Assembly (NCBI GenBank): GCA_038922795.1
Contig: JBCKWI010000003.1
Coordinates: 5,118-69,117 of the forward strand
DNA from: Gammaproteobacteria bacterium
GTDB lineage: Bacteria; Pseudomonadota; Gammaproteobacteria; Eutrophobiales; Eutrophobiaceae
DNA: 64,000 nucleotides
Reading direction: 5' to 3'
Shown: positions 32,825 through 52,660 of the stretch, piece by piece
Numbering within the stretch: the first letter of the stretch is position 1
Layout: every line of letters begins with the position of its first letter
The notes under the pieces: generated by a model
The model's input: the letters and a program-made list of their open reading frames with translations, nothing else
Told to the model about the DNA's origin: nothing
Database searches by the model: none
Translations under genes and position numbers: made by a program

Positions 32825-32845
32825 TCCAGACTATCGGAATTTGCT

Positions 32846-34192: not shown

Positions 34193-34273
34193 GATGCGTG
34201 CAGCGTATCTGGTATCCCGCATCTCGCTAAACGATTATCGGGAGTCGCTTCACGAGATACGAATAACGGCAGA

Positions 34274-36187: not shown

Positions 36188-36248
36188 TTCAAATACCTCG
36201 TTTAAATTGCATAATCATTATGTTCACTATAGCACTAACTCTTATCAT

Positions 36249-36869
36249 CTAGCACCTGAAGGAACGTGCCAGAATGTAAAATTCACGTGAATTGTTACGG
36301 GAGGCCCTAGGTTTTCGAGTCAGAATCTGCCGGAAATGTTCCTTCAGGCCCTGCCGGAATTCAGTAACACCCTCACCTTCAAAAATCTTGATCAGTAAAT
36401 CACCACCGGGGCGTAGCACCTGGCAGGCAAGATCCCTGGCTGTTTCGGCAAGAGTCATGCTGCGGGCCAGATCGCTGGACTTGATACCGGATATATTGGG
36501 GGCCATATCGGAGATTACAAGGTCTGCCTTGTTTCCGTCCAGGCTATGCAGGCACTGTCCATAAATTGCCTGCTCTGTGAAATCTCCCATGATAAACAAT
36601 ACGTTATCCATACTATCCACAGGCAGGATATCGATCGCAATCACTTTCCCCTGTGGTCCTACACGCTGGGCAACATATTGTGACCAACTCCCGGGCGCTG
36701 CACCCAGATCAATGACAGTCTGGCCTTTATGGAAAAGGTGGTCTTTTGCATCGATCTCCTTAAGCTTGTAAACGGCACGGGAGCGGTAATCAGACTGCCG
36801 CGCCTGCTTGACGTAGGGATCTCTTTGCTGCCGTTGTAACCAGCGGGTGCTGCCGGGACGTTTGGCCAT
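36249..36869 (-). CDS. rlmE: 23S rRNA (uridine2552-2'-O)-methyltransferase RlmE/FtsJ
   Basis: SAM-binding motif (VIDLGAAPGSWSQ) and the conserved position upstream of ftsH. Confidence 0.92.
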   Translation of the reverse strand: MAKRPGSTRWLQRQQRDPYVKQARQSDYRSRAVYKLKEIDAKDHLFHKGQTVIDLGAAPGSWSQYVAQRVGPQGKVIAIDILPVDSMDNVLFIMGDFTEQAIYGQCLHSLDGNKADLVISDMAPNISGIKSSDLARSMTLAETARDLACQVLRPGGDLLIKIFEGEGVTEFRQGLKEHFRQILTRKPRASRNNSREFYILARSFRC

Positions 36870-36964
36870 TGGTATCCAGAAGTCAGGAGACAGAAGTCAG
36901 AATACCAACTCCTAAACTCTTATTATTGTATTTTGAATTCTGGATTCTGAATTCCGGGAATGGA

Positions 36965-37441
36965 TTATTCATAGCGTACTTCCAGTATCTCATATTCCAC
37001 CGTGCCACCCGGCGCCTTGACTTCAACCACATCACCCTCCTGTTTGCCAATGAGTGCTCGCGCAATTGGAGAAGTAATGGAGATCAACATTTTTTCAATA
37101 TCTGCTTCCATTTCACCAACGATCTGATAGGTCACTTCCTCATTATTGGCGAGATTCGTCAAGCCTATGGTGGCACCAAATACCACCTTGCCATCAGTAT
37201 TCAGTGAGGAGATATCAATAATCTGGGCATCGGCCAGTGCGGTTTCTATCGCTGCAATGCGGCCTTCAAGAAAACTCTGTTGTTCACGCGCTGCATGGTA
37301 TTCGGCGTTTTCACTCAAATCACCATGGGCCCGGGCCTCGGCAATCGCCTTTGTAATACGCGGCCGATCAACGGACTTCAGTTCCTTCAGTTGTTCACGC
37401 AGACGCTGTGCGCCCCTGGCCGTGATGGGTGGTTTGCTCAT
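36965..37441 (-). CDS. greA: transcription elongation factor GreA
   Basis: 158 aa. GreA N-terminal coiled coil ([16 protein letters not shown]) and C-terminal FKBP-like domain. Overlaps the carB stop. Confidence 0.95.
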
Positions 37442-40400
37442 GATATTTCCCCGTGTAAATCCTGTAACCGGTTAACTTCTCCGGAATCATTCTGCTTCAA
37501 GGCCAGTACCGTCGCAGTCGCGCCGGCCATGGTGGTAGTATAAAACACCTTGTGTTGCAGAGCCGTGCGGCGGATGGAATAGGAATCCGCAATCGCCTGT
37601 TTATCTTCTGTCGTATTCACTATGAGATCAATTTCATCATTTTTCAACATATCTACAATATGCGGTTGGCCTTCCCGCACCTTGTTTACCCTCTGACACT
37701 CCAGCCCGGCTTCCCTTAAGGTCTTCGCTGTACCATCTGTCGCACACAACGAAAATCCCAACCGTAATAACTCACGCCCAATCATAACCGCCTGTTTCTT
37801 GTCTTCATCGCGCACACTGATAAAAACCAGTCCGGAACGGGGAATGATCTCGCCGGCACCAAACTGTGCCTTGGCAAAGGCCTCGGCAAAGCTGCGCCCG
37901 ACACCCATCACTTCTCCAGTTGATTTCATTTCCGGTCCCAGCAAGGAATCAACTCCGGGGAATTTGATAAAGGGAAACACAGATTCCTTGACTGAGAAAT
38001 AAGGCGGGACCTTCACGGTGATTATACCCTGCTCAGCCAGACTCCGGCCCACCATACAGTTTGCAGCGACCCACGCCAGCGAAACACCAGTCGCCTTGGA
38101 CACAAACGGCACGGTCCTTGAAGCCCTGGGATTGACTTCCAGTACAAAGATATCATTTCCCTGGATAGCAAATTGCGTATTCATCAGGCCAACTACATTC
38201 AGCTTCTTCGCCAAGGCGCTTACCTGATCAGCAATACGCCGCTGGATGTCCATACTGAGACTGTAAGGCGGTAAAGAGCAGGCGGAATCACCCGAGTGCA
38301 CCCCGGCCTGTTCGATATGTTCCATGATGCCGCCAATGACAACGTCAGTGCCGTCGGCGATCGCATCGACATCGACTTCAATTGCATCGCGCAAAAACCG
38401 GTCCAGCAAAACCGGCGATTCATTGGAAACAGCGACGGCATACCGCATATAGGTGCGTAATTCCTCCTTGTCATAAACGATCTCCATGGCGCGGCCACCC
38501 AGCACATAAGATGGCCTGACTACCAATGGATAACCAATTTCACCGGCGAGTCTTACCGCCTGTTCCGGATCCCGTGCAGTACGGTTCGGCGGTTGTTTCA
38601 GATTAAGCTCCACCAACAATTTCTGGAAACGTTCGCGGTCTTCAGCCATATCGATCGAATCCGGTGTAGTCCCGATGATCGGCGCCCCGGCGGCCTCCAA
38701 TGGCCGCGCGAGTTTTAACGGTGTCTGTCCGCCATATTGAACAATCACGCCAAAGGGTTTTTCAAGGTCGATAATTTCCAGCACATCTTCCAGTGTGAGT
38801 GGTTCAAAATACAGACGATCAGAAGTATCGTAATCCGTGGAGACTGTTTCCGGGTTACAGTTGACCATGATGGTTTCATAACCCGCCGCACGCATGGCCA
38901 GTGCCGCCTGCACGCAGCAATAGTCAAACTCAATGCCCTGGCCGATCCGGTTGGGACCGCCGCCCAGCACCATAATCTTCTTTTTGTCTGTTGGTTTCGC
39001 CTCGCATTCCTCTTCATAGGTGGAATACATATAAGCGGTGGTCGCCGCAAACTCGGCAGCACAGGAATCGACCCGCTTGTATACCGGGCGGATTTTGAGT
39101 TTATGCCGGAGCTGGCGGATATCTTTTTCAGATGTTCCAACCAGGGTTGCCAGCCTGCTGTCGGAAAAACCCTTGCGCTTGAGTTCACGCAACCGATCTT
39201 TTGTCAGTGCTGGTAAACCATGTTGTTTGATCAGTTTCTCTTCATCCACGAGATCTGCAATCTGCGCGAGGAACCACGGATCGATATGTGAATACTGATG
39301 CACCTCATCGATACTCATACCGTAACGAAAGGCCTCGGCCATATACCAGAGCCGGTCAGCGCGTGGCACACGCAGTTCACGCTGAATCAATTCAACAGCA
39401 TCTTCGTGACTCATACCGGCAGGTATACATTCATTCAGGCCATCACGCCCGATCTCAAGCCCACGTATCGCCTTCTGCAGTGATTCCTGGAAGGTGCGGC
39501 CGATTGCCATCACTTCGCCAACTGATTTCATCTGTGTGGTCAGGCGATCGTCGGCCTTGGGGAATTTCTCAAAGGTAAATCTAGGAATCTTGGTGACGAT
39601 GTAATCAATGGTTGGCTCAAACGACGCCGGTGTGGCGCCGCCGGTGATCTCATTTGCCAGTTCATCCAGTGTGTACCCCACAGCGAGTTTGGCCGCCACT
39701 TTTGCAATCGGGAAACCGGTCGCCTTGGAGGCGAGGGCGGAAGAACGGGATACACGCGGATTCATCTCGATAACGAACAATTCACCATTGTCCGGGTTCA
39801 CGGCAAACTGCACATTGGAACCACCGGTATCCACGCCGATCTCGCGCAATACAGCGATGGAGGCATTACGCATGATCTGGTATTCCTTGTCAGTCAGCGT
39901 CAATGCGGGCACAATGGTAATGGAATCACCGGTATGCACACCCATCGGATCAAAATTCTCAATTGAGCAGATAATGATGCAATTATCTTTATGATCACGC
40001 ACCACTTCCATTTCATATTCCTTCCAGCCAAGCACCGACTGCTCCAGCAATATCTCACTGGTCGGCGAGGCATCGAGTCCGCGTTCACAGATCTCGATAA
40101 ATTCTTCGCGGTTATAGGCTATCCCGCCACCACTGCCACCCAGTGTAAATGATGGCCGGATAATGATCGGGAAGGCGATCTCATTCTGGGCTTCTTTCGC
40201 CTGTTCCATGTTATGTGCCAGTACAGAATACGGCATCTTGAGTCCGATCTTTTTCATGGCCTCGCGAAAACGTCCGCGGTCTTCGGCCTTGTCGATGGCA
40301 TCTACCGAGGCGCCGATCAGTTCGACACCGTACTTCTCAAGCACACCCTCACGTGCCAGATCCAACGCGCAATTCAAACCGGTCTGCCCACCCATGGTCG

Positions 40401-40662
40401 GCAGGATGGCGTCCGGACGTTCCTTCGCAATGATCTTTTCCACCACCCGCCAGTGCACTGGTTCAATATAAGTGGCATCGGCCATGCCCGGATCGGTCAT
40501 GATCGTGGCCGGATTGGAATTCACCAGAATGACGCGATAGCCTTCCTCGCGCAGTGCCTTGCAGGCCTGCGCACCGGAATAATCAAACTCACAAGCCTGG
40601 CCAATCACGATGGGACCGGCGCCGATGATGAGTATGGACTTTATGTCAGTGCGTTTTGGCAT
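37438..40662 (-). CDS. carB: carbamoyl-phosphate synthase large subunit
   Basis: 1074 aa with two ATP-grasp halves and an MGS-like C-terminal domain. Confidence 0.97.
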
Positions 40663-40720
40663 TTACCCATTCCACGCTGCACGAGTGATAATTCACATGT
40701 CAAAAAATATTCTTGAATCA

Positions 40721-41854
40721 TCATTTTTTGTTATTACCCATCAATTCTATAAAGTGTTCAAACAACGGCCTGACATCATGCGGACCGGGACTGGCTTCCG
40801 GGTGTCCCTGAAAACTGAACGCAGGCAGATGAGTATGGTGCACGCCCTGCAATGTGCCATCGAACAGCGAGCGGTGTGTCGCCTTCAGCGTTGCCGGCAG
40901 TGTATTTTCCTCCACGGCAAAACCATGATTCTGACTGGTAATCATGACCTGGCCTGTGGCGAGGTCCTGCACCGGGTGATTAGCACCGTGATGACCGAAC
41001 TTCATCTTGGTGGTCTTTGCGCCAGCAGCCAGTGACAACAACTGATGGCCGAGACAGATACCGAATACGGGTATTTTCGTGGGGAGGATCTCCTGTATTG
41101 CTGCTATTGCATAATCACAAGGATCAGGATCGCCAGGACCATTAGAGAGAAAAATTCCGTCCGGTTTTTCCTTGAGTATTTCCTGTGCCGGTGTTTTGGC
41201 CGGGACTACTGTCAATCGGCATCCGCTGTCCGCCAGGATGCGCAGAATGTTCCGCTTTATCCCGTAGTCATAGGCAATGACGTGAAAACGCTGTTCAACC
41301 CTGGCTGCTGCCTGATCATTTAGTTGCCAGCTTCCTTCTGCCCAGTCGTAACTTTTTGCGGTGGTTACCTCTTGGGCCAGATCGGCCCCCTTCAGACCAG
41401 GGAATGCGCGTGCAGCAGCAATGGCTGTATTTTGATCAATCGTATGCCCCGCAACAATACACCCGTTCTGTGCCCCCTTGTCCCGCAATAACCGGGTCAG
41501 GCGCCGTGTATCAACATCGGCAATCGCCACCACCTTCTGGCGCTTGAGATAATTCTGCAAGGGTTCTTTGGCCCGCCAGTTGCTGACTGCAAAGGACAGA
41601 TCACGGATAACCAGTCCGCTGGCATAGGCAGCGGTGGACTCTTCATCTTCAGGATTGACGCCCACATTACCGATATGTGGCTGGGTGAGTGTAACGATTT
41701 GTTTGAAATAAGAAGGGTCGGTGAGAATTTCCTGGTATCCGGTGATGGCCGTATTAAAAACAACTTCCCCTACCGCCTGACCCGCGATCCCGATAGAACT
41801 GCCATGCAATACAGTCCCGTCTTCCAGTGCCAACAACGCCGGTTGTTTCAACAA
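40721..41854 (-). CDS. carA: carbamoyl-phosphate synthase small (glutaminase) subunit
   Basis: 377 aa. Class-I GATase triad context (GICLGHQ). Confidence 0.95.
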
Positions 41855-41990
41855 ACTCTCCGAAATACAGACTACACACGTACAAAACGGGAGTACCGTA
41901 TGGCTACTCCCGTCAGATTTTCAGTGTGTGAATTTTACTGGCATGTCCCGGCAATGTCTATGCATCATCCATTAACACTGCAAAGATTTC

Positions 41991-42848
41991 TCAGGCTGCG
42001 CGCTTTTGGTGCAATTCACCGCAGGGGATCAGGACCGGCGACCGGCTACGGCTCAATATTATCAGATGATTGGGCGGCACCGGTTGCCAGCCGGGATCAT
42101 TCGTCAACCTCTCAGAACTGACAACCACCTCATCGTATATCTGTTGTTCTTTGCCACCGGACTCATACAAATCCCCGCAATAATAATAAAGTGACTCCGG
42201 CGGGTGTTCCCGGTCATTGTTGTAACGTGAAATGACTGCATTTTCCCCATCGGTAACCGCTACATTCAGATAACTGGGCACGTTATCGCCAAATTGCTCT
42301 ACTATTGCGACAACCCGTTGAATGGCGCTGTCGAGTGCAGCGGCGAGCTCCAGCGCCCCAATCACCTGTTTTTTCAGTAATTCATCTATGATGACAGCAA
42401 AAAAGTTCTCTGAATCCGTGCTGCCAAAAATGTTGCTGAAGGCTTCGTCACAAACAGTTTCAAGTAACTTGCGCCGTATCTTCTGGAAATTGCCCACATC
42501 ACCATTATGCATGCAGAGATATTTGCCAAACCGGAAGGGATGGCAGTTGGCTTCATTGACACCACTCGACTGGGTTGCGGCACGGACATGCGCAAGCACA
42601 CAGGAACTGGCAACGACACGGGACAGGTTATGCAGGTTACGGTTATTCCAGGCCGGAGTAATAGAACGGAATACGGCGGGGTCATTGGAAAATTCCGGGG
42701 CATACCAGCCAACACCGAAACCATCACCATTCAAGGGCTCTTCCCTTTCGTGACTATTGGAACTCTGCCGGATCAGGGAATGAGCAGGTTCAAGCAGAAG
42801 TGAACTCAATCGTACCGGTGGCCCCAGATAGAGTGTGAATCGACACAT
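41991..42848 (-). CDS. class-II (Ntn) glutamine amidotransferase, YafJ-type
   Basis: With the ATG at 42848 the protein starts MCRFTLYLG, the Cys-2 nucleophile typical of Ntn amidotransferases. The fold motifs HVRAATQSS...NCHPF and HNGDVGNF are present. It is divergent from the downstream ligase operon. Confidence 0.8.
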   Translation of the reverse strand: MCRFTLYLGPPVRLSSLLLEPAHSLIRQSSNSHEREEPLNGDGFGVGWYAPEFSNDPAVFRSITPAWNNRNLHNLSRVVASSCVLAHVRAATQSSGVNEANCHPFRFGKYLCMHNGDVGNFQKIRRKLLETVCDEAFSNIFGSTDSENFFAVIIDELLKKQVIGALELAAALDSAIQRVVAIVEQFGDNVPSYLNVAVTDGENAVISRYNNDREHPPESLYYYCGDLYESGGKEQQIYDEVVVSSERLTNDPGWQPVPPNHLIILSRSRSPVLIPCGELHQKRAA

Positions 42849-43072
42849 AACAAACTCCTGAATGGCAGAAGGACAACACAACCCGTTTCGCCAGGACAAC
42901 ACGATACGATCACACTAATTATTGTACGTTTTTCCGGGTTTGCAAATAAAACTCCAGCAAACCGGCACTATCATCAACCATAAAGTCAGCGTAGTATAAT
43001 TAAAAATCAATATTGAATGCATAGACACTGCCCTGTACCCTGTGATTTCATTCTGCTGATCCAGATTTGCTG

Positions 43073-43789
43073 ATGGACATCGAATTACCCATACCCATAC
43101 TGCCCCAACCAGATGATACAACCTGTGGGCCGACCTGTTTGCATGCCGTATACAATTACTATAATGACAATATCCCGCTGGCGGAGGTAATTGCAGATAC
43201 ACAGATGCTGGATGCCGGTGGCACCCTGGATGTTTTTCTGGCCTGCTCGGCATTACGGCGCGGTTACCAGGCGACTATTTATACCTACAGCCTGCAGATG
43301 TTCGATCCAAGCTGGTTCAGTTCACCTGACATTAATATTGCCGAACGCCTGCAACGTCAGGCAGAGTTAAAACATGATAAAAAACTGCAACATGCCACAC
43401 GGGGTTATCTGGAGTTTCTGGAACTTGGCGGCAAAATACGATTCACAGATCTGAATACCCGCCTGTTGCGCAGTATTATCCGTAGAAAAATGCCGATTTT
43501 GACGGGCCTGAGTTCAACCTACCTTTATCGCAGCATACGTGAATTTGGGCCAACGGACGATCCGGATGATATTCGCGGACTGCCGGGCGGGCACTTTGTG
43601 ATCCTGAGTGGTTACCACAGACAGGACCGTACCATATTGATCGCTGATCCCTATCTGAAAAACCCGGTTGCACCGGGTCAATTGTACCCGGTGAACATCG
43701 ATCGTGTTATCTGTGCCATTTTACTGGGTGTATTGACTTATGATGCCAACCTGTTGGTGATCCATCCTCGACGAGAAAAAATTATATGA
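43073..43789 (+). CDS. papain-like cysteine peptidase of the C39 type (standalone)
   Basis: QPDDTTCGPTCLHAV matches the C39 Q/Cys motif (QxxxxDCGxACL) and the downstream His motif is GGHFVILSGY. The track start is TTG 43067. The ATG at 43073 (MDIELPIP...) is more likely. Confidence 0.65.
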   Translation: MDIELPIPILPQPDDTTCGPTCLHAVYNYYNDNIPLAEVIADTQMLDAGGTLDVFLACSALRRGYQATIYTYSLQMFDPSWFSSPDINIAERLQRQAELKHDKKLQHATRGYLEFLELGGKIRFTDLNTRLLRSIIRRKMPILTGLSSTYLYRSIREFGPTDDPDDIRGLPGGHFVILSGYHRQDRTILIADPYLKNPVAPGQLYPVNIDRVICAILLGVLTYDANLLVIHPRREKII

Positions 43790-45258
43790 CAATCCTGTTG
43801 GTCGTAACCAACCCGAATAACTGGCCACTGCATATTCCGGGGGTAGTCGTGACCTCGGCCCGTTCCTACCTGACCGATCCTGCATTCAGCGAGGACCGCT
43901 CAACCAAGGTATTCAATCTGTGCCGTTCCTATGCTTATCAAAGCACTGGTTATTATGTTTCACTACTGGCCGCCGCACGGGGACATAAACCGTTGCCGGA
44001 CATCAACACCATTCAGGACCTGAAATCACAGTACGTAATCCGCGCATTGTCAGAAGAAATAGAAGAACAGATCCAGACCGCATTCAAGCGGTTGCAATCC
44101 AAAAAATTTACTTTGAGTATCTATTTTGGCAGGAATACCGCCAAACAATACAACAGTATAAGTTTACGTTTATTTGATATCTTCAAAGCCCCGTTATTGC
44201 GCGCGCAATTCGTCAGGGGCAAAATCTGGCAACTGGATTCCATTCGCACGATAACCGTGAGCGATATTCCGGAAAACCACCGTAAATTTGTAATTGAATG
44301 TGCAACGGATTATTTTTCGGGCAGAAAGCGGCGTGTCAGAAAACGTACTACACCAAGATTCGATTTGGCGCTTCTGTATAACCCCGATGAAAAAGAGCCC
44401 CCCTCAAACAGCAAGGCAATAAAAAAATTCCAGAAGGCAGCCGAAGCGGTAGGTCTTGATCTGGAATTAATAACACGAAATGACATGCATCGTCTTGCTG
44501 AATTCGATGCACTGTTTATTCGCGAGACTACAGCGGTCAACCACCATACTTTTCGAATCGCGCAACGCGCAATTGCAGAAGGACTGGTTGTAATGGATGA
44601 CCCGGACTCCATACTGAAATGTTCCAACAAGGTATATCTGGCTGAATTATTTACACGGCATTCCATACCTATTCCTAAAACCCTGGTTATTCATCGAAAC
44701 AATATTGATGAAATTCAAAAAATACTGGGTCTGCCATGCATACTCAAACAACCGGACAGCGCTTTCTCAATGGGGGTCACCAAGGTTGAAACTGTGGATG
44801 AACTAAATCAGCAAGTCACGCGCCTGTTATCCAAATCTGATCTAATCGTTGCACAGGAATTTCTGCCTACAAGTTTCGACTGGCGGATTGGTATTTGTGA
44901 CAGGCGTCCGTTATATGTTTGCCGTTACTATATGGCACGGCGACACTGGCAAGTTTATAAACGTGATGAATCCGGTAATGCTCATAGTGAAGGTGAATCC
45001 AACACGATATCAGTCGGCGAAGCACCGGATGAGGTCATTAAAACAGCACTCAAGGCAGCAAATCTGATTGGCGATAGTCTTTATGGCGTGGATTTGAAAC
45101 AGATCGGTAACAAGTGTTATATCATTGAGGTCAACGATAACCCAAATATTTACACAGGGACTGAGGATGCTGTTTTGAAAGATGCCCTATACCGGGAGAT
45201 TATGGGAATCTTTTTAAAACGCATCGAAGCACGTAAACGCGGCCCATCACCGGTATGA
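43786..45258 (+). CDS. RimK-like ATP-grasp ligase with an N-terminal extra domain of about 220 aa
   Basis: C-terminal ATP-grasp fold motifs are present (CILKQPDSAFSMGV; LIVAQEFLPTSFDWRIG; YGVDLKQ...YIIEVNDNPNI). Start overlaps the upstream stop (ATGA). Confidence 0.85.
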   Translation: MTILLVVTNPNNWPLHIPGVVVTSARSYLTDPAFSEDRSTKVFNLCRSYAYQSTGYYVSLLAAARGHKPLPDINTIQDLKSQYVIRALSEEIEEQIQTAFKRLQSKKFTLSIYFGRNTAKQYNSISLRLFDIFKAPLLRAQFVRGKIWQLDSIRTITVSDIPENHRKFVIECATDYFSGRKRRVRKRTTPRFDLALLYNPDEKEPPSNSKAIKKFQKAAEAVGLDLELITRNDMHRLAEFDALFIRETTAVNHHTFRIAQRAIAEGLVVMDDPDSILKCSNKVYLAELFTRHSIPIPKTLVIHRNNIDEIQKILGLPCILKQPDSAFSMGVTKVETVDELNQQVTRLLSKSDLIVAQEFLPTSFDWRIGICDRRPLYVCRYYMARRHWQVYKRDESGNAHSEGESNTISVGEAPDEVIKTALKAANLIGDSLYGVDLKQIGNKCYIIEVNDNPNIYTGTEDAVLKDALYREIMGIFLKRIEARKRGPSPV

Positions 45259-46508
45259 CAGAGACCATTGCCACGCTCCCGCTGTTTGCGGGTTATGGTA
45301 TTGAACTCGAATATATTATTGTTGATCGCGATCATCACAATGTTCTGCCTGTTACCGATCAGTTACTCAAAGCCGCCACAGGTGACTATGTCAGTGATTA
45401 TGAGGAAGGATCCATTGCCTGGTCGAATGAACTGGTACTGCATGTCATTGAATTAAAGACCAACGGGCCGGTCAGCATGCTTACCGGTTTACCGGATCAT
45501 TTTTTATCCAATATCCACCGTATCAACAAAATCCTTGAAAACATGAACGGCAGGCTGATGCCAGCAGCTATGCATCCCTGGATGGATCCTTTTAAAGAAA
45601 CCCGATTGTGGCCGCATGAGTCTTCCGAGATCTATGAAAGCTACAATCGTATCTTCAATTGCCAGGGACATGGCTGGTCGAACCTGCAAAGCATGCATAT
45701 CAATCTGCCGTTTGCAGATGATCATGAGTTTGCGCTTTTACATGCTGCCATCCGTATATTGTTACCGATTATGCCGGCACTCGCCGCGAGTTCACCGATC
45801 ATGGATGGTCAATATACCGGCCTGCTGGATACGCGGCTGGAAGTCTACCGGCGCAATGCCGAAAAAATCCCCAGCATCACCGGCCTGGTGATTCCGGAAC
45901 CGGTGCATCATTATCTCGATTATCAAAACATGATCCTGCAGCCCATGTATGCTGCCATTGCCCCGCATGATCCGGAGGGCATTTTGCAATATGAATGGTT
46001 GAATTCCAGGGGAGCCATTGCCCGCTTCGACCGTAACGCCATTGAGATACGCGTGCTGGATACACAGGAGACGCCGCAGGCCGATATCGCCATTGCCGCC
46101 ATGATCATATCCATCCTCAAGAAGCTGGCGGCTGCGATATGGTCTGATGTTACAGAACAAAACCAGCTCGACACAGAAACTCTGGCAGAGCTCTTGATGT
46201 TGACCATCAAAGAAGGTGAACTGGCTACAATTAAAAATAAGTCCTATCTTGAATTATTCGGTTTTCCGGATCGCAAAGGCCTGGTACAGGAACTCTGGCA
46301 ACACTTGCTTGAATCAATATCAGCAGATGATACGGATTTAATCCCGGAACTCAGAAAAACAATAGAATACATCATTCATTGCGGGCCACTGGCACGCCGC
46401 ATCAAGCTGTCGATCGGCAAGGAGTGCAAACGTTCTCACATGCAAGAGTCTTATCGCCAGCTCTGCGATTGTTTAAATAACGGACAGCTCTTTGAAGGCA
46501 TCGACTAG
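45255..46508 (+). CDS. GCS2/YbdK-type carboxylate-amine ligase (glutamate-cysteine-ligase family 2)
   Basis: The N-terminal GYGIELEYIIVD pattern is characteristic of GCS2 (GxExEhxxVD). About 417 aa. Start overlaps the upstream stop (ATGA). Confidence 0.7.
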   Translation: MTETIATLPLFAGYGIELEYIIVDRDHHNVLPVTDQLLKAATGDYVSDYEEGSIAWSNELVLHVIELKTNGPVSMLTGLPDHFLSNIHRINKILENMNGRLMPAAMHPWMDPFKETRLWPHESSEIYESYNRIFNCQGHGWSNLQSMHINLPFADDHEFALLHAAIRILLPIMPALAASSPIMDGQYTGLLDTRLEVYRRNAEKIPSITGLVIPEPVHHYLDYQNMILQPMYAAIAPHDPEGILQYEWLNSRGAIARFDRNAIEIRVLDTQETPQADIAIAAMIISILKKLAAAIWSDVTEQNQLDTETLAELLMLTIKEGELATIKNKSYLELFGFPDRKGLVQELWQHLLESISADDTDLIPELRKTIEYIIHCGPLARRIKLSIGKECKRSHMQESYRQLCDCLNNGQLFEGID

Positions 46509-47367
46509 AAAAATAATAATAACCTGTGAACATGGCGGTCATCATGTGCCATTGGAATATCGCCACCTGTTTAACAAACAGCAGTCCGTCCTGGGTTCTC
46601 ACCGCGCCTGGGATGCAGGGGCACTGCTACTTGCCAGAGAGCTTGCCAAAAAATTAAATGCGCCGCTCATAGTTTCTGAAATAACCCGGTTACTGATCGA
46701 TCTCAACCGTTCCCTGCACCATCGTGTTCTCTTTTCAGAATTCACCAGAGATTGTGATAAAGAAACCAGAAATCAAATTCTTCAGGAGTATTATTTTCCA
46801 TACCGGAACCGTGTCGAGAATGAAATTACAAAAGCATCGAAAGGGGGGAAACCAGTAGTCCATTTTTCTATCCATTCGTTCACGCCCAGACTTGGTAGTG
46901 AAATACGTAAAGCCGATATCGGATTGCTGTATGACCCGACCAGGAAAGGCGAACGTGATCTCTGCATCCAGCTACAGGCTATTCTGCAGGGAATTAACCA
47001 TCTCCGTAAGGAACATAGTTCCCTCACCCGTGCTTCGCACGGCCTCTCCCGGAGGGAGAGGCTAATACACCCTCTCCCTCCGGGAGACGACTGCATGGAT
47101 GCAGGAGGTAGAATAACGCTTGGAGCAGTTATCGAGGGTTGGGGTGAGGGTGCCGTGGATGGTAATGCAAACCAGCCTATCGTCCGGCGTAATTATCCCT
47201 ATCGCGGTAATGCAGATGGTTTTACAACTTATTTAAGAAAAAAATATCCGGGATCAAAATACATTGGTATAGAGATCGAAATCAACCAGAAGCAGGTCAA
47301 TCATGCTGATCACTGGAAAAGTTTACGCGAGCATATAATCAATTCTGTTATCAGACTAACAATCTGA
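46492..47367 (+). CDS. N-formylglutamate-amidohydrolase-family (FGase-like) hydrolase carrying an in-frame REP insertion
   Basis: ITCEHGGHHVP, SIHSFTP and ...RRNYPYRGN...YIGIEIEINQ fit the FGase family. A 120-nt REP element (47041-47160) is translated in frame as GLSRRERLIHPLPPGDDCMDAGGRITLGAVIEGWGEGAVDG. Confidence 0.7.
   Translation: MKASTRKIIITCEHGGHHVPLEYRHLFNKQQSVLGSHRAWDAGALLLARELAKKLNAPLIVSEITRLLIDLNRSLHHRVLFSEFTRDCDKETRNQILQEYYFPYRNRVENEITKASKGGKPVVHFSIHSFTPRLGSEIRKADIGLLYDPTRKGERDLCIQLQAILQGINHLRKEHSSLTRASHGLSRRERLIHPLPPGDDCMDAGGRITLGAVIEGWGEGAVDGNANQPIVRRNYPYRGNADGFTTYLRKKYPGSKYIGIEIEINQKQVNHADHWKSLREHIINSVIRLTI
47041..47160. repeat. REP family-A element (ggcctctcccggagggagaggc / ccctctccctccgggag ... 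ggttggggtgaggg) located inside a coding sequence
   Basis: Direct reading. Same family as 275-309, 10405-10560 and 61793-61912. Its length of 120 nt preserves the reading frame. Confidence 0.8.
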
Positions 47368-47473
47368 AAATATTCTTATGGAGCGATTAACCCGGCCAGA
47401 AGCTGCCTGCGTTGCTACCCGATATCTATGCCTCTCAGGTTTTGGAGAGCTGGGTACACATACAACATAAACC

Positions 47474-47815
47474 ATGCCTGCAATTCATGATCTTTGTGCG
47501 CTGAATGATATTCCGGACCAGAAGGCAAAAGGATTTACACTGGAGACTGAAGGTAGCAAGCTTGAATTTTTCATCGTGCGCAAGGGTGATCAGGTCTATG
47601 GTTACATCAACCGCTGCCCGCATACCGGCGTGAACCTCGACTGGCAGCCGGACCAGTTCCTGGATTTGACCGGTTACCAGATACAATGCTCCATGCATGG
47701 CGCAATATTCAGGATCAGGGATGGTTTTTGTGTTTATGGCCCCTGCCAGGGCCGGCATCTGACTCCAGTCAATCTGTTACTGGATAACCACCGGATACAA
47801 CTTGTTATGGAATAA
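47474..47815 (+). CDS. Rieske [2Fe-2S] domain protein (small ferredoxin-like)
   Basis: CPHTGVNL...(17 aa)...CSMHGAIF matches CxH...CxxH. 113 aa. Confidence 0.85.
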   Translation: MPAIHDLCALNDIPDQKAKGFTLETEGSKLEFFIVRKGDQVYGYINRCPHTGVNLDWQPDQFLDLTGYQIQCSMHGAIFRIRDGFCVYGPCQGRHLTPVNLLLDNHRIQLVME

Positions 47816-49052
47816 ACTGCCGATGGCCGTAGGGTTTCCAGGCGGGCGCGATCACATTGGGCATGGAAGAACGGTTAAGTAATTGCGCGGGCGCCAGCGC
47901 AAATTCACCGTAGCGCATATTTACTGCATCCATCACGGCATTGATATGCTGTTGTTTGTTTGCCTTGACCGGATCATCCACAAACATTTCCATCTGCTGC
48001 TGCGCCGGCATCGGATCCAGCGCCGTGACCTGCACACCGTGTACACCTTCCCCTTGCCAGTAATCAGCGATCAGCCGTTCACACAGATCGATGATGACAT
48101 GGCTGTCGCTGGTGGGGATGGCACAACTGAAATGATCGCCCAGCCAACCGTCGTTGACACGCAATGTTATGGAAAAATGCTTGGCCTGCAGGTGATGCCG
48201 CCGGAGCCGCGCCGCGAGTTTCTCGCTCATGTGCATGAGATAAGTGAGAATGACTTCTGTATCACGGGTATTCGGTGGCATGACCTTGCCGTGGCCCATC
48301 GACTTCGGCGCAGCAATACGGGTCTGCACCGGCTCCGGATCCAGTCCCTGGCACATGTGCCAGATGCGCCGTCCCGGATTACCAAAACGCTGCGCCAGAA
48401 TACTGATCGGCAGTTTTGCCATATCACCGCAGGTGTGCACACCGTATTCCGCAAGAAATACACCAATCCCACGGCCGATGCCGCATAACTGTGTTACCGG
48501 GACTTCGCGCAATGCCTCCCGCGCCTCCCACGGCGGGATCACATTAAAACCATCGGGTTTGACCTGCTTCGCCGCGAACTTGGCCGTGGTCTTGTCACCA
48601 CTCAGGCCAGCGGTGCAGGTGACTCCCGCAGCGGCGTATACACGCTCCTTCGCGAGCCGTGCGATATATTCCGGCCCTTTTTTCCAGAACCGCTGGCAAT
48701 GCGTAACATCAATGAATGCTTCATCAACGGAAAATACCTCCACATCCGGACTGATGTCCTGCAATGCAGTCATGATCGCGGTGGAAACTTCGGCATAACG
48801 CTGCGGCCGGGCCGGACGCTGAATAATATCCGGGCACAATTTCCTGGCTTCCTTAAGCCGCATGCCGGTGTGTATGCCGTAGGCACGTGCTTCGTAGGAA
48901 GATGTGATCAGACAGGTGCCCTGCATGCCATTGGTGACGCCGACAGGTCTTCCGCGCAATTCAGGATGATCCATCTGTTCGATCGATGCAAAAAAAGCAT
49001 CCATGTCAATAAAGACAATCGCCCGGGGCCAGTGTTGAGTTTGCTGTATCAT
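47805..49052 (-). CDS. dinB: Y-family (DinB/UmuC-like) translesion DNA polymerase
   Basis: Catalytic motifs FIDMDAFFASIE and SVDEAFIDVT are present. ATG 49052 (MIQQTQHW) is the likely start, because the track start at 49088 is TTG. About 415 aa. No umuD neighbour. Confidence 0.8.
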   Translation of the reverse strand: MIQQTQHWPRAIVFIDMDAFFASIEQMDHPELRGRPVGVTNGMQGTCLITSSYEARAYGIHTGMRLKEARKLCPDIIQRPARPQRYAEVSTAIMTALQDISPDVEVFSVDEAFIDVTHCQRFWKKGPEYIARLAKERVYAAAGVTCTAGLSGDKTTAKFAAKQVKPDGFNVIPPWEAREALREVPVTQLCGIGRGIGVFLAEYGVHTCGDMAKLPISILAQRFGNPGRRIWHMCQGLDPEPVQTRIAAPKSMGHGKVMPPNTRDTEVILTYLMHMSEKLAARLRRHHLQAKHFSITLRVNDGWLGDHFSCAIPTSDSHVIIDLCERLIADYWQGEGVHGVQVTALDPMPAQQQMEMFVDDPVKANKQQHINAVMDAVNMRYGEFALAPAQLLNRSSMPNVIAPAWKPYGHRQFIP

Positions 49053-49457
49053 GATCAAAATATTAAGCCTGGAACGGGCCTGCACCAAATAAAATAAAAA
49101 CCCCTGTTAACAATGGGTTAAAGCCATGCATTGGCCAACAGACTGATCTGTCTGAAAAAATTTATTCGACTTTTGCGAACCGGCCTGTATTTATTATTTC
49201 AACCAAAAACTGAGCAGAAAATTCTGTCAGGTTCACTCGGTAAAATATAACAATACTAAAAATCGACCTGCACAGGGGCTACTCATTAATTTAACCGTAA
49301 TGAAACCTTACAATCGAATATCCATTCAAATCCTTCATGAATTTATTCAATAATAATCTGAATATAAAATCCGGTATTTTCAGCCGGTCCCGGAGAATTC
49401 CCAATTCTGTTGCACGTTTATACATCGGAATATTTTCAATTATTTTATAATTGTTGT

Positions 49458-50403: not shown

Positions 50404-52092
50404 ATGGCAATTAACAAAAAACACAGGCACCTGAATGCACTCAAGCCTGGTCATAAAATACACTGGTACGAGATCAGTGATATTCTGGGGCTGGGTGGTT
50501 TCGGCATCACCTACCTTGCACACGACCTCAACCTGGATCATCAGGTGGCCATCAAGGAATATCTCCCGGTGGATCTTTCCACGCGCGACAATGCGGGCAA
50601 TGTACAACCTGTCTCGTCCGAACATGCTGATAGATATCTTTGGGGTCTCAGCCGCTTTCTTGACGAAGCACGCACCATCGGGCAATTTAAACACCTGAAT
50701 ATTGTCCGGGTCCGGAATGTATTTGAGGCAAACAATACTGCCTACATGGTGATGGATTATGAGTTGGGGGAAAGCCTGCAGGAGATTCTGAGCCGCCGCA
50801 AGACACTGAGCGAGGAAGATATTAAAAGTGTCATCCTGCCTATTATTGATGGTATGCGGCATGTCCACGCTGCCGGATTTATTCACCGGGATGTCAAGCC
50901 CGCAAATATCTTTATCCGTGTTGATGGTGATCCCGTGCTTCTTGATTTTGGTTCGGCCCGCAAATCCCTGGAAGATTCAAACAAATCACTGACCAGTATT
51001 TTTTCACGCGGCTATGCGCCGATTGAACAGTACAACACTTCGGAGGACACCCAGGGTCCATGGACCGATATTTATTCGCTGGGGGCCACACTGTACCGGG
51101 CCATAGCCGGAGTACCACCCACAGATGCTGTTGATCGAAGTGCTGCTATCAGTCATACCTCGAGAGATACCTATGTTCCTGCTGTCGTGATTGGCAAGGA
51201 CAAATATTCTCTGCCCCTGCTTGAGGCCATCGATCATGCACTGCAATTCAGACAACAGGAGAGACCATCATCCATATCAGACTGGAAACTGGAATTCAGT
51301 GACCCAAGGAAAGAAACTGCTCTGCCACCTGAACAATTTGATCTTGATACCACAGCAGAGAAGAAAACAGGTTTTCAATTGGCCAGGGAAGCAGCCGAAA
51401 AAGGGGATGTCATTGCCATATCCAATCTGGCTTTCATGTACGCAAAAGGCAGTGGGGTAGAAAAAGACGAAAAGCTGGCCATGCAGTGGTATAAAAATGC
51501 GGCGGAAAAAGGCCATCTCAATTCCCAGTATAACCTTGGTGTTATTTATGCCAAGGGCCGCGGGGTAACACAGGATTACACCGAATCATTCAGGTGGTAC
51601 AAAATGGCGGCAGAACAAGGTGATGTCTTTGCCCAATCAACAGTAGCGATGATGTTTGCCAAAGGGATCGGCACCGCTAAAAATGAAAAGGAGGCCGTGA
51701 ACTGGTATCACCGCGCTGCTATGCAGGATCATACCAATGCACAGTATATCCTCGCCAATATGTTTCTGAAGGGGCGTGGTGTCCCCCAGGATGAATTGGA
51801 AGCCTTTGAATGGTTTCAGAAGGCCGCTGAAAAAGATCACATTAATGCGCAGGTTACTCTGGGATATATGTATGGAAAAGGAAAAGGAACGAAGCGTAAT
51901 GATGTTGAAGCATTTAACTGGTATCTGAAAGCGGCGGAACAAGGGCATCCCAATGCACAATATAATCTTGGGGTCATTTATGCCAAGGGCAGAGGCATAA
52001 AACGTGATTTGGATGCGGCAAAAAAATGGTATCGTAAGGCGGCTGATCAGGGTGATGAAAATGCCCTCAAGTCGCTGGAGCGGCTTAATTAA
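50404..52092 (+). CDS. eukaryotic-type Ser/Thr protein kinase fused to C-terminal Sel1 (SLR) repeats
   Basis: Kinase motifs are Gly loop LGLGGFGITY, VAIK, HRDVKPANIF, DFGSA and APE-like YAPIEQ. At least 6 Sel1 repeats follow (A/GxxxLGxxYxxGxGVxxDxxxAxxWYxKAAEQG). Confidence 0.85.
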   Translation: MAINKKHRHLNALKPGHKIHWYEISDILGLGGFGITYLAHDLNLDHQVAIKEYLPVDLSTRDNAGNVQPVSSEHADRYLWGLSRFLDEARTIGQFKHLNIVRVRNVFEANNTAYMVMDYELGESLQEILSRRKTLSEEDIKSVILPIIDGMRHVHAAGFIHRDVKPANIFIRVDGDPVLLDFGSARKSLEDSNKSLTSIFSRGYAPIEQYNTSEDTQGPWTDIYSLGATLYRAIAGVPPTDAVDRSAAISHTSRDTYVPAVVIGKDKYSLPLLEAIDHALQFRQQERPSSISDWKLEFSDPRKETALPPEQFDLDTTAEKKTGFQLAREAAEKGDVIAISNLAFMYAKGSGVEKDEKLAMQWYKNAAEKGHLNSQYNLGVIYAKGRGVTQDYTESFRWYKMAAEQGDVFAQSTVAMMFAKGIGTAKNEKEAVNWYHRAAMQDHTNAQYILANMFLKGRGVPQDELEAFEWFQKAAEKDHINAQVTLGYMYGKGKGTKRNDVEAFNWYLKAAEQGHPNAQYNLGVIYAKGRGIKRDLDAAKKWYRKAADQGDENALKSLERLN

Positions 52093-52489: not shown

Positions 52490-52660
52490 GGTGTCATTTC
52501 GGGCAAAGCGAGAAATCTGTAGTTAAAAATGTCAAACAAAATCAAATAACCGCGAGATTTCTCGACCACTGTTCCAGACGTGGTTCTACCGCCTGCTTCC
52601 ATGCAGGCGTCCCTACGGTCGAAATGACAATAACAACTTAATCAGAGGTTCTCTGAATAA
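52490..52660. repeat. Composite palindromic repeat cluster (family C gtcatttcg-gcaaagcgagaaatctg / cgcgagatttctcgacc plus a family B unit plus the terminal module gaaatgacaa...cttaatcagag)
   Basis: Direct reading. Related copies at 54917-55020 and 60583-60648. Confidence 0.8.

Follow-up and report, generated by a model that had tools for sequence, protein, structure and literature searches.

A gammaproteobacterial operon as a probable member of a widespread four-enzyme amidoligase module with an RLAN-containing RimK-like ligase

In a 64,000-nt stretch of DNA from a gammaproteobacterium (contig JBCKWI010000003.1; hereafter the window), positions 43073-47367 very probably hold one copy of a four-enzyme amidoligase module that is widespread, self-contained, and cytoplasmic. 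The module consists of a C39-like peptidase, a RimK-like ATP-grasp ligase with an N-terminal RLAN domain, a GCS2-family ligase, and an FGase-family amidohydrolase. In a survey of the neighborhoods of 100 related loci that span six phyla or more, partners being counted over testable loci only, the ligase gene is adjoined by the C39 gene in 75 of 88 loci, by the GCS2 gene in 64 of 75, and by the FGase gene in 42 of 65. The same four-gene order is found in Gammaproteobacteria, a Thiobacillus MAG, Acidobacteriota, Bdellovibrionales, Spirochaetes, Krumholzibacteriia, and Legionella, and the flanks of the module are unrelated between loci. This arrangement is far beyond chance, and conserved catalytic residues are seen in all four core enzymes. 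Recurrence of the gene set in other genomes, which the initial annotation had named as a check, is thus established by the survey. The six-gene unit that it had described shrinks to four, as few testable loci have either of the other two genes adjacent: 7 of 73 for the putative amidotransferase gene and 5 of 61 for the Rieske gene.

Organization of the locus

All six open reading frames proposed earlier are present (Table 1), and the family call for each is borne out by Pfam. The core genes overlap by 4-17 nt as had been described, namely by 4 nt between the C39 and ligase genes (43786-43789), 4 nt between the ligase and GCS2 genes (45255-45258), and 17 nt between the GCS2 and FGase genes (46492-46508), the last of which starts with TTG. 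They are probably translationally coupled. No signal peptides are evident in the N-termini of the core proteins as read from the sequence. The likely start of the C39-like gene is the ATG at 43073, because orthologues have 234-238 aa; a TTG at 43067 is an alternative.

Table 1. Features of the amidoligase locus (positions within the window)
Feature	Position	Strand	Basis
EgtC-like class-II (Ntn, Cys-2) amidohydrolase, accessory	41991..42848	-	Pfam GATase_4
Divergent intergenic region	42849..43072	.	sequence read
C39-like papain-fold Cys peptidase, core gene 1 (predicted)	43073..43789	+	Pfam Peptidase_C39_2
RLAN domain, ligase residues 1 to ~190	43786..44355	+	Pfam PF14401
RimK-like ATP-grasp domain, C-terminal half of core gene 2	44362..45258	+	Pfam RimK
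GCS2-family carboxylate-amine ligase, core gene 3	45255..46508	+	Pfam GCS2
FGase-family metallo-amidohydrolase, core gene 4	46492..47367	+	Pfam FGase
In-frame 171-nt repeat insertion within FGase gene	~46993..47163	+	palindromic modules, missing in L001
Small Rieske [2Fe-2S] protein, accessory	47474..47815	+	Pfam Rieske

The divergent intergenic region, previously given as 160 bp, measures 218-224 bp when the Cys-2 start of the EgtC-like gene is used (42849 to 43067 or 43073). It is AT-rich and presumably holds both promoters; promoter-like matches within it are no commoner than in shuffled sequences, and Rfam returned nothing at E < 0.09. It contains no conserved small ORF, the small-ORF clusters being shadows of the flanking coding sequences.

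The core enzymes

The first core gene matches Pfam Peptidase_C39_2 (2.4e-09). Its product is a stand-alone, cytoplasmic protein with the predicted catalytic set Gln12/Cys18/His174/Asp192, and its fold is closest to that of PCAT leader peptidases.

The N-terminal domain of the ligase, formerly described as unassigned and 220 aa long, spans ~190 aa and belongs to the Pfam family RLAN (PF14401, 1.2e-48), named in full "RimK-like ATPgrasp N-terminal domain". For RLAN, a stripped-down ATP-grasp-like module without the catalytic Lys, Asp, and E-x-N is predicted, a likeness that rests on one AF2 model; a profile-profile comparison was not significant (probability ~1%, P = 0.05). The distant structural matches of RLAN include MdnB/C, PsnB, and CdnC. 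To our knowledge, the description of the family does not mention an ATP-grasp-like fold and calls RLAN an uncharacterized alpha+beta domain. RLAN is followed by a basic, disordered linker (residues ~180-193, GRKRRVRKRTTPR) whose basic nature is conserved. Fusions of the type GNAT(RimI-like)-RLAN-ATP-grasp exist, and solo RLAN ligases occur in Pseudomonas, Azospirillum, and ~10 metagenomic loci. Anecdotally, the P. aeruginosa ligase gene PA1345 clusters with ribosomal-protein genes in one transcriptome.

The C-terminal half of the ligase matches Pfam RimK (1e-10) and reaches 58 bits with NCBIfam rimK_fam against a cut-off of 143. Its best profiles are those of alpha-L-glutamate ligases and glutathione synthetase (rimK_fam, LysX, MptN, CofF, PRK12458). 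When the domain is aligned to the RimK structures 7qys, 5zct, and 4iwx, residues R246, K321, Q357-E358, D436, and E448-x-N450 are kept, and the same residues are invariant in the ligase-family alignments; the domain looks catalytically competent. The RimK loop "NLHRGG" reads "NAHSEG" in this ligase.

The GCS2 protein covers profile positions 2-283 of 291 (Pfam GCS2, 2.4e-27) and has the YbdK family as its best NCBIfam match, with 59 bits against a cut-off of 176; phmmer found no relatives in the PDB. Residues conserved to 95% or more across 58 orthologues include E17, E19, E59, H63, E66, H139, N143, H148, N150, R252, R257, R260, E264, R266, D269, and E272. The enzyme represents a subfamily distinct from YbdK, EgtA, and GshA.

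The FGase protein matches its Pfam family (3.8e-23) only over residues 8-148 because of an insert. It has 291 aa and is ~55 aa longer than all 119 other best homologues owing to an in-frame 171-nt (57-codon) repeat insertion, which the initial annotation had not mentioned. The insertion is missing in L001, whose flanking genes are ~95% identical, and among the 120 best homologues it occurs only in the window's own protein; it is private to this genome. It contains a perfect 17-nt inverted repeat (47045-47061 / 47071-47087), and its core palindrome occurs 13 times in the window, where 0.03 matches would be expected. Modules of the insertion recur at ~10 other, mostly intergenic sites as dispersed palindromic repeats. 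The open reading frame is intact, as are, on either side of the insertion, the motifs CEHGG12, DLNRS70, HSFTP128, RRNYPY232, and EIEINQ261; the corresponding residues reach 95% conservation or more in 23 orthologues. The insert-free orthologue of L001 matches PDB 2odf (Atu2144) at 2.1e-17.

The initial annotation had asked whether the ligases are housekeeping enzymes. Neither is: all NCBIfam equivalog scores lie far below their cut-offs (RimK, 31.9 against 331; GshB, 21 against 272; cyanobacterial GshA, 44 against 249), and the same holds for the FGase protein and HutG (20.5 against 279).

Neighboring genes

The divergent gene encodes a 285-aa protein that begins with Met-Cys and matches Pfam GATase_4 (2.1e-15), the PDB entry 3mdn (2.4e-39), and EgtC 4zfj (3.5e-18); with the NCBIfam model for EgtC it scores 203.5 bits against a cut-off of 218.65. 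It is a stand-alone Ntn domain without a synthase or acceptor domain. The role of ammonia donor assigned to it earlier does not fit, and the protein is better read as a putative third hydrolase, because a synthase domain is missing and EgtC, the named protein nearest to it, is an amidohydrolase. Six of the seven loci with an adjacent gene of this type have it in divergent orientation (L001, L013, L014, L017, L018, L021); in the seventh, L063, it is co-directional and occupies the FGase slot. This type has joined the module twice independently.

The Rieske gene (Pfam Rieske, 2e-10) starts 106 nt after the FGase stop. Its five loci are L001 and L013-L016; in L013 its distance from the FGase stop is 3 nt, and in L015 the two genes overlap. 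L015 and L016 have the Rieske gene without the GATase gene, and L017, with differing outer flanks, has the GATase gene without the Rieske gene. Both genes are lineage-specific extras of essentially one gammaproteobacterial clade.

The 122 neighboring genes fall into 114 Pfam families, of which GATase_4 is the most frequent (5 of 122), and no recurrent transporter, regulator, or target was found among them. The core is accompanied by no matches to defense models and by no RNA families known to Rfam. In ~60 non-redundant loci, no conserved ORF for a precursor or tag lies next to the core, and this small-ORF comparison agrees with the earlier remark that no precursor-peptide gene is obvious.

Possible functions of the module

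The reading that we tentatively prefer, with a probability somewhat short of even, is that the module makes and hydrolytically turns over a small glutamate-containing peptide of the gamma-glutamyl type, from free amino acids in the cytoplasm and with a glutathione-like two-ligase logic. The GCS2 enzyme would form the first amide, probably a gamma-glutamyl bond, and the ATP-grasp domain would add at least one acidic residue to an alpha-carboxylate by way of an acyl-phosphate. RLAN, taken to be a catalytically dead ATP-grasp-like module, may hold the acceptor or growing product, or mediate complex assembly. The two hydrolases would be paired "erasers" or maturases: a C-terminal or N-acylated glutamate would be removed by the FGase-type enzyme, and the gamma-glutamyl/isopeptide bond cleaved or transpeptidated by the papain-fold enzyme. 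The gammaproteobacterial clade would have recruited the EgtC-like Ntn amidohydrolase and the small Rieske protein as accessories. We infer each of these chemical steps from family membership.

A small acidic peptide would be favored by the best profiles of the ligase, and the twofold recruitment of an EgtC-like gamma-glutamyl-amide hydrolase type points to it as well. So do the combination of GCS2 with ATP-grasp, which is the pairing of GshA and GshB, and the substrate of FGase, whose only characterized activity known to us is on small N-acyl-glutamate. Against the peptide model, RimK and LysX, the nearest characterized relatives of the ligase, act on proteins, the ligase can function in the absence of a GCS2 product, as the solo RLAN ligases show, and 23 of 65 testable loci have no adjacent FGase match.

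The main rival, which we regard as somewhat less likely, is a reversible protein or peptide modification, in which an unlinked housekeeping protein would receive an acidic tail from the RimK-like ligase, either at its C-terminus or at a branch point. RLAN would recognize the target, GCS2 would install an initiating isopeptide-linked residue, and the C39-like and FGase enzymes would be erasers or trimmers, in parallel to RimK/RimB on S6 or TTLL/CCP on tubulin. It draws on the protein substrates of RimK and LysX/ArgX, on the solo ligases, the GNAT fusions, and the anecdotal PA1345 clustering, and on the conserved non-catalytic RLAN with its basic disordered linker, which would suit macromolecular recognition. 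It also draws on the pairing of RimK with a trimming protease, RimB, as described in PMC11957791. It is at odds with the lack of any candidate target or tag gene conserved beside the module in 100 loci, with the altered substrate loop of the ligase, and with the small molecule that is the only known substrate of the FGase family.

A poly-amino-acid reserve or polyanion, similar to cyanophycin or poly-glutamate, is improbable. RLAN would anchor the growing chain in the way that the cyanophycin synthetase N domain presumably does, and the two hydrolases would depolymerize it. Two ligases of differing bond specificity and two hydrolases fit a make-and-break cycle, the basic linker could bind a polyanion, and the lack of a conserved exporter would keep the product intracellular. 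In its favor, too, RimK makes poly-alpha-glutamate in vitro, according to PMC10375531. The Pfam and NCBIfam scans, however, gave no similarity to cyanophycin synthetase, cyanophycinase, or Pgs/Cap poly-gamma-glutamate genes.

Even more doubtful is the six-gene unit of the initial annotation, in which a class-II glutamine amidotransferase feeds ammonia to a ligase so that the product is amidated, with the Rieske protein also involved. The GATase_4 gene does stay by the core in six gammaproteobacterial loci, even with differing outer flanks, appears independently in L063, and leads the neighboring families, and in close relatives the Rieske and FGase genes abut or overlap. Yet both genes are rare beside the module and occur without each other, the Ntn domain stands alone and resembles an amidohydrolase, and we know of no glutaminase partner for either ligase family.

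A RiPP (graspetide-like) or other exported natural product, with the C39-like enzyme removing a double-glycine leader, is very improbable: the PCAT-like C39 fold, the occurrence of ATP-grasp ligases in graspetide clusters, and the distant RLAN matches to such ligases are set against a RimK-family rather than microviridin-type ligase profile, no conserved small ORF in ~60 non-redundant loci, no fused or recurrent ABC or other exporter, and flanks that are housekeeping-like and not a biosynthetic island. Accidental adjacency of a genuine RimK (S6), GshA/GshB, and HutG, suggested by public annotations of the ligase as "glutathione synthase" or as "RimK family" and of the hydrolase as "N-formylglutamate amidohydrolase", is effectively refuted by the equivalog scores and by a gene order with overlapping stop/start codons kept across phyla, while RimK and GshB lack the RLAN architecture and no hut genes are nearby.

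Relationship to known systems

RimK/RimB (and RimA), the system of S6 poly-alpha-glutamylation, shares with the module a RimK-family ATP-grasp enzyme with conserved ATP/Mg residues and a ligase paired with hydrolases that could trim the product. In contrast to the window's ligase, RimK has no RLAN domain and no GCS2 or FGase partner, and RimB is a retropepsin, not a C39-like peptidase. Also among the closest systems are GshA and GshB with phytochelatin-synthase-like cleavage (Nostoc Alr0975), from which the module differs by its ligase scores and by the addition of RLAN and FGase. As in ergothioneine synthesis, where EgtA puts on a gamma-glutamyl group and EgtC later removes it, a GCS2-family ligase adjoins an EgtC-like Ntn hydrolase; however, the EgtC score falls just below the cut-off, the vicinity lacks egtB, egtD, and egtE, and most members of the four-enzyme module lack the EgtC-like gene. 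LysW/LysX/LysK differs in that the module has no adjacent LysW-like carrier, no linked lysine or arginine biosynthesis genes, and an FGase-type instead of an M20 hydrolase. Tubulin TTLL/CCP is a functional analogy only, the ATP-grasp fold being all that is homologous: acidic tails are written by an ATP-grasp enzyme and erased by a metallo-hydrolase, and a possible initiator/elongator split would fit the two ligases of the module. FGase is supposedly related in fold to M14 carboxypeptidases. Unlike the C39 domains of PCAT/ComA, the window's peptidase is stand-alone and cytoplasmic, has ~100 extra residues, and lacks both an ABC transporter fusion and an adjacent GG-leader substrate.

The closest match is the RLAN-type RimK-like amidoligase system, which was reportedly defined as a prediction by Iyer, Abhiman, Burroughs and Aravind in Mol Biosyst in 2009, and which likewise joins RLAN with a RimK-like ATP-grasp, the two being linked in operons to a GCS2 COOH-NH2 ligase as well as to amidohydrolases or peptidases. 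No biochemical characterization of the module was found in the literature consulted, in line with the initial annotation, and a P. aeruginosa relative still carries the label "hypothetical". The window's copy adds the EgtC-like and Rieske neighbors and the FGase repeat insertion. The system itself is already catalogued by comparative genomics and its RLAN domain is already a Pfam family; the window's operon is a straightforward member of it, in which nothing essential differs.

A four-gene module of invariant order

The operon in the window belongs to the RLAN-type amidoligase system catalogued by Pfam. Its core consists of four genes encoding a C39-like cysteine peptidase, a ligase with an N-terminal RLAN domain joined to a RimK-like ATP-grasp half, a GCS2 ligase, and an FGase-family amidohydrolase. 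These genes overlap at successive junctions by 4, 4, and 17 nt and are probably translationally coupled. The ORF map agrees exactly with the gene positions and order of the initial annotation, and a Pfam scan of the six proteins confirmed its family calls (GATase_4/GATase_6, Peptidase_C39_2/C39, RimK-type ATP-grasp, GCS2, FGase, and Rieske). The N-terminal domain of the ligase, which had been left unassigned, matches RLAN (PF14401) at 1.2e-48 with 165 bits against a cut-off of 25, and RimK is matched at 1e-10. At about 490 aa, the ligase is similar in length to more than 100 homologues. No signal peptide was seen on inspection of the N-termini. The divergent intergenic region, previously put at 160 bp, measures 218-224 bp if the Cys-2 start of the EgtC-like gene is used, the range being set by the choice of the C39 start. 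Rfam gave no credible riboswitch or sRNA match in this region, two weak matches falling in a palindromic insert (see below), and promoter and terminator motifs were no more frequent than in shuffles.

Features of the window and of related loci; positions refer to the window unless a locus is named
Feature	Position	Strand	Remarks
Type I restriction-modification locus	2330-9986		hsdM, hsdS, hsdR; GC 0.36-0.41
hsdM	2330-4135		
Palindromic-repeat mini-copy in hsdM	3615-3650		~33 nt, in frame
AAA_15/AbiEii-like ATPase gene	5270-6769		between hsdS and hsdR
EgtC-like GATase_4 gene	41991-42848	-	285 aa, Met-Cys start, divergent from core
C39-like peptidase gene	43067/43073-43789	+	two candidate starts; stand-alone, 238 aa
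RLAN + RimK-like ligase gene	43786-45258	+	about 490 aa
GCS2 ligase gene	45255-46508	+	core gene 3
FGase-family gene	46492-47367	+	core gene 4
Insertion in FGase gene	about 46993-47163		171 nt, in frame, stop-free
Indel between FGase stop and Rieske start	47392-47461		about 66 nt, relative to L001
Rieske gene	47474-47815	+	113 aa
dinB (Y-family polymerase gene)	47805-49088	-	
Convergent overlap of Rieske and dinB 3' ends	47805-47815		11 nt
Kinase-Sel1 fusion gene	50404-52092		562 aa
Second low-GC stretch	58001-60000		GC 0.40
ORF without Pfam match	58851-60056		401 aa
Dispersed short repeats	278-309, 3627-3645, 10409-10427, 10535-10565, 61799-61817, 61871-61906		
Dispersed short repeats, further	18632-18722, 28268-28318, 28556-28580, 52561-52611, 55637-55673, 56843-56870, 57004-57031		
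Upstream partner gene of solo RLAN ligase	L067, 3073-4695		
Upstream partner gene of solo RLAN ligase	L071, 347-1825		
Upstream partner gene of solo RLAN ligase	L079, 166-1338		
Upstream partner gene of solo RLAN ligase	L083, 173-1318		
Solo RLAN ligase gene	L102 (P. aeruginosa pZYPA1927, 32456-45925), 5905-7494		529 aa, 41% identity

For comparison, 100 loci with ligases 52-96% identical to that of the window were collected by a genome scan, by look-ups of 62-86% identical homologues, and by a metagenome scan that used a diverse alignment. Each count covers the loci whose contigs extend far enough for the gene in question to be detected. The ligase gene is adjoined by the C39-like peptidase gene in 75 of 88 testable loci, by the GCS2 gene in 64 of 75, and by the FGase gene in 42 of 65; the core genes thus co-occur across genomes. 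The EgtC-like GATase_4 gene (7 of 73) and the Rieske gene (5 of 61) are rare companions, and the conserved unit therefore comprises four genes and not the six that the initial annotation had listed together. Within the 100 loci, the core order is invariably C39, ligase, GCS2, FGase on a single strand. Titles of the genome-derived loci name Gammaproteobacteria, Acidobacteriota, Bdellovibrionales, Spirochaetes, and Krumholzibacteriia, plus a Thiobacillus MAG. A Legionella adelaidensis record lists a 'RimK family protein', a 'glutamate-cysteine ligase family protein', and an 'N-formylglutamate amidohydrolase' as adjacent entries.

When all flanking ORFs were clustered de novo, no additional family turned up in more than 10 loci. 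The 122 immediate neighbours fall into 114 different Pfam families, the commonest being GATase_4 (5) and Rieske (3), and include no recurrent transporter or regulator. Nor did neighbours of thiol, glyoxalase, or ribosome-related function give a usable signal of enrichment, as glyoxalase, DksA-type zinc finger, and S4/pseudouridine synthase proteins each account for 2 of the 122. The varied, unshared neighbours together with the fixed core order indicate that the module is self-contained and resides in varied housekeeping-like contexts. Its genes are inherited together without a linked substrate gene or exporter.

Accessory EgtC-like and Rieske genes

In the window, the EgtC-like gene lies between carA and the C39-like gene. 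A GATase_4 gene is divergently adjacent to the core in six related loci (L001, L013, L014, L017, L018, and L021; 77-96% ligase identity), and this adjacency is kept in L017, where the outer flanks differ. Loci L015 and L016 (82%) lack it and retain carAB and the Rieske gene. More distant loci are also devoid of GATase_4, with the exception of L063 (58%), in which such a gene (1.2e-26, 9853-10806) follows GCS2 co-directionally where the FGase gene, here absent, would lie. This independent second case of association is a hint of a functional link, and the arrangement suggests that an Ntn amidohydrolase is able to substitute for the FGase-type hydrolase. The EgtC-like protein of the window begins with Met-Cys-Arg-Phe, providing an N-terminal Cys nucleophile, and is matched by both GATase_4 and GATase_6. 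The Ntn domain alone covers the protein, which carries no fused synthase or acceptor domain, and it is most closely related to the stand-alone protein 3mdn and to the amidohydrolase EgtC. This stand-alone architecture and these relatives suggest that it acts as another amide hydrolase.

The Rieske gene abuts or overlaps the FGase gene in close relatives and is therefore probably co-transcribed with it, in the clade of the window only. The gap between the two genes is 0-3 nt in the relatives L013 and L015 and is wider in the window through an indel, the sequence of which has no other copy in the window. The 3' end of the Rieske gene overlaps convergently with that of dinB, and no terminator-like site was detected between these genes.

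Catalytic residues and the fold of the RLAN domain

Sequence alignments show that catalytic residues are retained in all four core enzymes. In an alignment to RimK structures, the ligase half keeps R246, K321, Q357-E358, D436, and E448-x-N450, whereas the 'NLHRGG' substrate loop of RimK reads 'NAHSEG' in the window ligase. In GCS2, clusters of Glu, His, and Arg are conserved among orthologues, and the FGase motifs CEHGG, DLNRS, HSFTP, RRNYPY, and EIEINQ are all present. The module is thus predicted from its sequences to encode four competent enzymes, two ATP-dependent makers and two breakers of amide bonds.

The structural model of the RLAN domain (residues 1-194) has a pLDDT of 83.7 and a pTM of 0.75. 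All 50 Foldseek matches listed are ATP-grasp-fold proteins, with query TM-scores of 0.41-0.57 across the matches listed; ten of them have E <= 1e-3 and probabilities of 0.96-1.00. On this model, RLAN appears to adopt an ATP-grasp-like three-dimensional fold. A sequence-detectable internal duplication of the ligase half is not supported, as hhalign comparison of RLAN with its own ligase half was not significant (probability 0.3-1.1%; 0.3% with a shallow alignment of Neff 2.1, P = 0.05 with a more diverse one of Neff 4.3), and structural similarity alone remains. A greedy alignment of both halves is collinear and stops before the ligase strands 'GVDLK...IEVNDNP' (D/E-x-N), and the position of the ATP-binding Lys is not conserved in RLAN. 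By structure prediction, RLAN is probably a degenerate, catalytically dead ATP-grasp-like module.

Proposed function of the module

The reading that we tentatively favour is that the module makes and turns over a small intracellular glutamate-containing peptide. The combination of GCS2 and ATP-grasp ligases would follow the logic of glutathione formation by GshA and GshB, and the best profiles of the RLAN ligase are alpha-L-glutamate ligases. The hydrolases would supply matching reverse chemistry: by analogy, FGase-type enzymes free glutamate from an N-acyl group, which would reverse a RimK-type addition, and papain-fold and EgtC-type enzymes cut gamma-glutamyl or isopeptide bonds, which would reverse a GCS2-type ligation. 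In such a small-peptide pathway, the role of RLAN would be that of a scaffold or holder.

Reversible modification of an unlinked protein, the chief rival, is possible although somewhat unlikely. Points in its favour are the C39-like protein's relatives that process polypeptides, the precedent of RimK and LysX, and the extra recognition-type domain of the ligase. A further reading, which we regard as rather doubtful, is a bacterial 'write-and-erase' code on an unlinked protein such as a ribosomal or translation factor. GCS2 would initiate an isopeptide-linked branch, and the RLAN ligase would lengthen an acidic tail while its dead ATP-grasp-like RLAN half docks the target. Erasure, at branch points and by chain shortening, would fall to the C39-like and FGase-type enzymes. 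Such a code would be a prokaryotic counterpart, across many phyla, of the glutamylation of tubulin by TTLL and CCP enzymes. Failing such a code, the module would make a widespread, previously undescribed gamma-glutamyl cofactor resembling glutathione, a reading that shares the same doubt.

Use of the module for polymer storage is improbable. A six-gene amidation scheme, in which the amidotransferase had been proposed to donate ammonia, is a quite improbable alternative, since this protein has no synthase domain, has EgtC and 3mdn as relatives, and is missing from 66 of 73 module loci. Synthesis of a RiPP or of an exported natural product is very unlikely. The initial annotation had already noted that no precursor gene was obvious, and clustering of the small ORFs (18-90 aa) found up to 500 bp from the core in about 60 non-redundant loci corroborated this absence. 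No precursor or tag peptide emerged, and the clusters that recurred were all shadows, antisense or out of frame, of the C39, FGase, or GATase coding sequences, which argues against a graspetide or other RiPP cluster. The C39-like protein resembles PCAT-type bacteriocin peptidases in its C39 fold and its Gln/Cys/His/Asp catalytic set but has no ABC exporter fusion, no gene for a double-glycine leader, and no recurrent transporter nearby.

That the module consists of housekeeping enzymes is extremely unlikely, as the proteins score far under the curated NCBIfam equivalog cut-offs by which such identity was judged, so that the ligases do not belong to the known families initially considered as an alternative. 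The EgtC-like amidotransferase is the only protein near the cut-off of a named function.

Scores of the window proteins against models of named enzymes
Model	Score (bits)	Cut-off (bits)
RimK, NF007764	31.9	331
LysX	54	276
GshB, PRK05246	21	272
PRK12458	47.5	408
YbdK family	59	176
Cyanobacterial GshA (gshA_cyano)	44	249
HutG, TIGR02017	20.5	278.75
EgtC, TIGR03442	203.5	218.65

A genuine S6 ligase RimK is also dismissed by architecture, which is a 300-aa single module in RimK versus the longer RLAN-bearing ligase here, and in phmmer searches the ligase half reaches just 35-44 bits with the sequences of RimK crystal structures. GshA and GshB are rejected on their scores, and the name 'glutathione synthase' or 'glutathione synthase/RimK-type ligase' used for the RLAN ligase in public records (cluster P0512: OGT65941.1 and others) is unsupported by these scores and misleading. 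phmmer finds no PDB relative of GCS2, and the best PDB relative of the FGase protein is the uncharacterised Atu2144 (2odf). HutG is rejected by its score and by the lack of flanking hut genes. An ergothioneine pathway (EgtA-E) is rejected by the EgtC score and by the absence of EgtB and EgtD domains among the neighbours of the 100 loci. Fusions of a RimI-like GNAT domain (under cut-off) with RLAN and ATP-grasp in the homologues P0383 (646 aa), P0339, P0382, P0299, and P0366 raised the idea of kinship with the NAGGN synthetase Ngg; this idea was rejected, as P0383 has no TIGR03103 match and a tblastn search of plasmids gave no match on S. meliloti pSymB. None of the six proteins has a PADLOC match that would indicate an anti-phage defence system.

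Repeat insertions and other loci in the window

The FGase gene of the window carries an insertion that is lacking in L001, a relative with flanking genes about 95% identical. This insertion is composed of palindromic modules, among which is a perfect 17-nt inverted repeat. It lies between HSFTP and RRNYPY, where alignments of distant orthologues break. Among the best 120 homologues from a database of 5.8 billion proteins, the insert is private to the window's protein and missing in the other 119. It recalls the palindromic elements found inserted in coding genes of Rickettsia. Its modules recur at about a dozen sites of the window, mostly intergenic as in REP/MITE elements. The core palindrome CCTCTCCCGGAGGGAGAGG has 13 matches in the window versus 0.03 expected, and a second module of ~50 nt reads GACTGCATGGATGCAGGAGG... 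A mini-copy within a normally variable loop of hsdM, whose N6_Mtase match takes up 366 residues against a profile of 311 positions, is possibly a second intragenic insertion.

The restriction-modification locus that contains hsdM probably represents a horizontally acquired defence islet because of its low GC content, compared with about 0.49 for the window. Elsewhere, a Ser/Thr protein kinase domain is fused to a long Sel1 repeat array, and an ORF without Pfam match is located in a second low-GC stretch.

Distribution and significance of the RLAN ligase family

When clustered at 90% identity, the ligase family falls into at least 8,000 clusters, all generically named, and RLAN alone has 802 representatives at the 50% level. 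Carriers include Proteobacteria (among them Legionella, Pseudomonas, and Azospirillum), Acidobacteriota, Bdellovibrionota, Spirochaetes, and Krumholzibacteriia. In about 13 loci, C39, ligase, and GCS2 are present but no FGase gene adjoins them, and about 10 loci contain a solo ligase. In four of the latter, which lack C39, GCS2, and FGase, a conserved co-directional gene for a protein of 390-540 aa without Pfam match is located upstream and may represent an alternative partner system for solo RLAN ligases. The RLAN-type amidoligase system was reportedly predicted in silico by Iyer and colleagues in 2009, seventeen years ago.

Cultured carriers include Azospirillum and P. aeruginosa, both with the solo form, Legionella with the full form, and also Tistrella and Aeromonas. 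The P. aeruginosa ligase gene of L102 sits between genes for an SDR and a PLP aminotransferase, with a glutamate/aspartate ABC transporter and ggt nearby; the 'plasmid' record pZYPA1927 resembles a stretch of chromosome. The gene order in Pseudomonas is ggt, aatPMQJ, pagP, SDR, and then the ligase, which by this order and by PAO1 numbering probably corresponds to PA1345. In a 2025 paper, PA1345 is still a 'hypothetical ATP-binding protein' with a putative CpxR-binding site. PA1345 appears in the literature in gene lists only, and a search of the searchable literature found nothing on this operon, neither a product nor a phenotype.

To this picture, the present analysis adds a four-gene definition with statistics, the accessory status of the amidotransferase and Rieske genes, the absence of precursor and exporter, the predicted RLAN fold, and a list of culturable hosts. 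Biochemical work becomes more tractable with a minimal unit of four genes from which the amidotransferase and Rieske genes are dispensable, no precursor or exporter to supply, and culturable hosts identified. RLAN as a degenerate ATP-grasp module would suggest a pseudo-enzyme scaffold within a ligase. The finding would be ordinary if the product is a minor variant of known peptide metabolism; a real gap would be filled by a new protein modification or by a new metabolite of thiol or gamma-glutamyl type.
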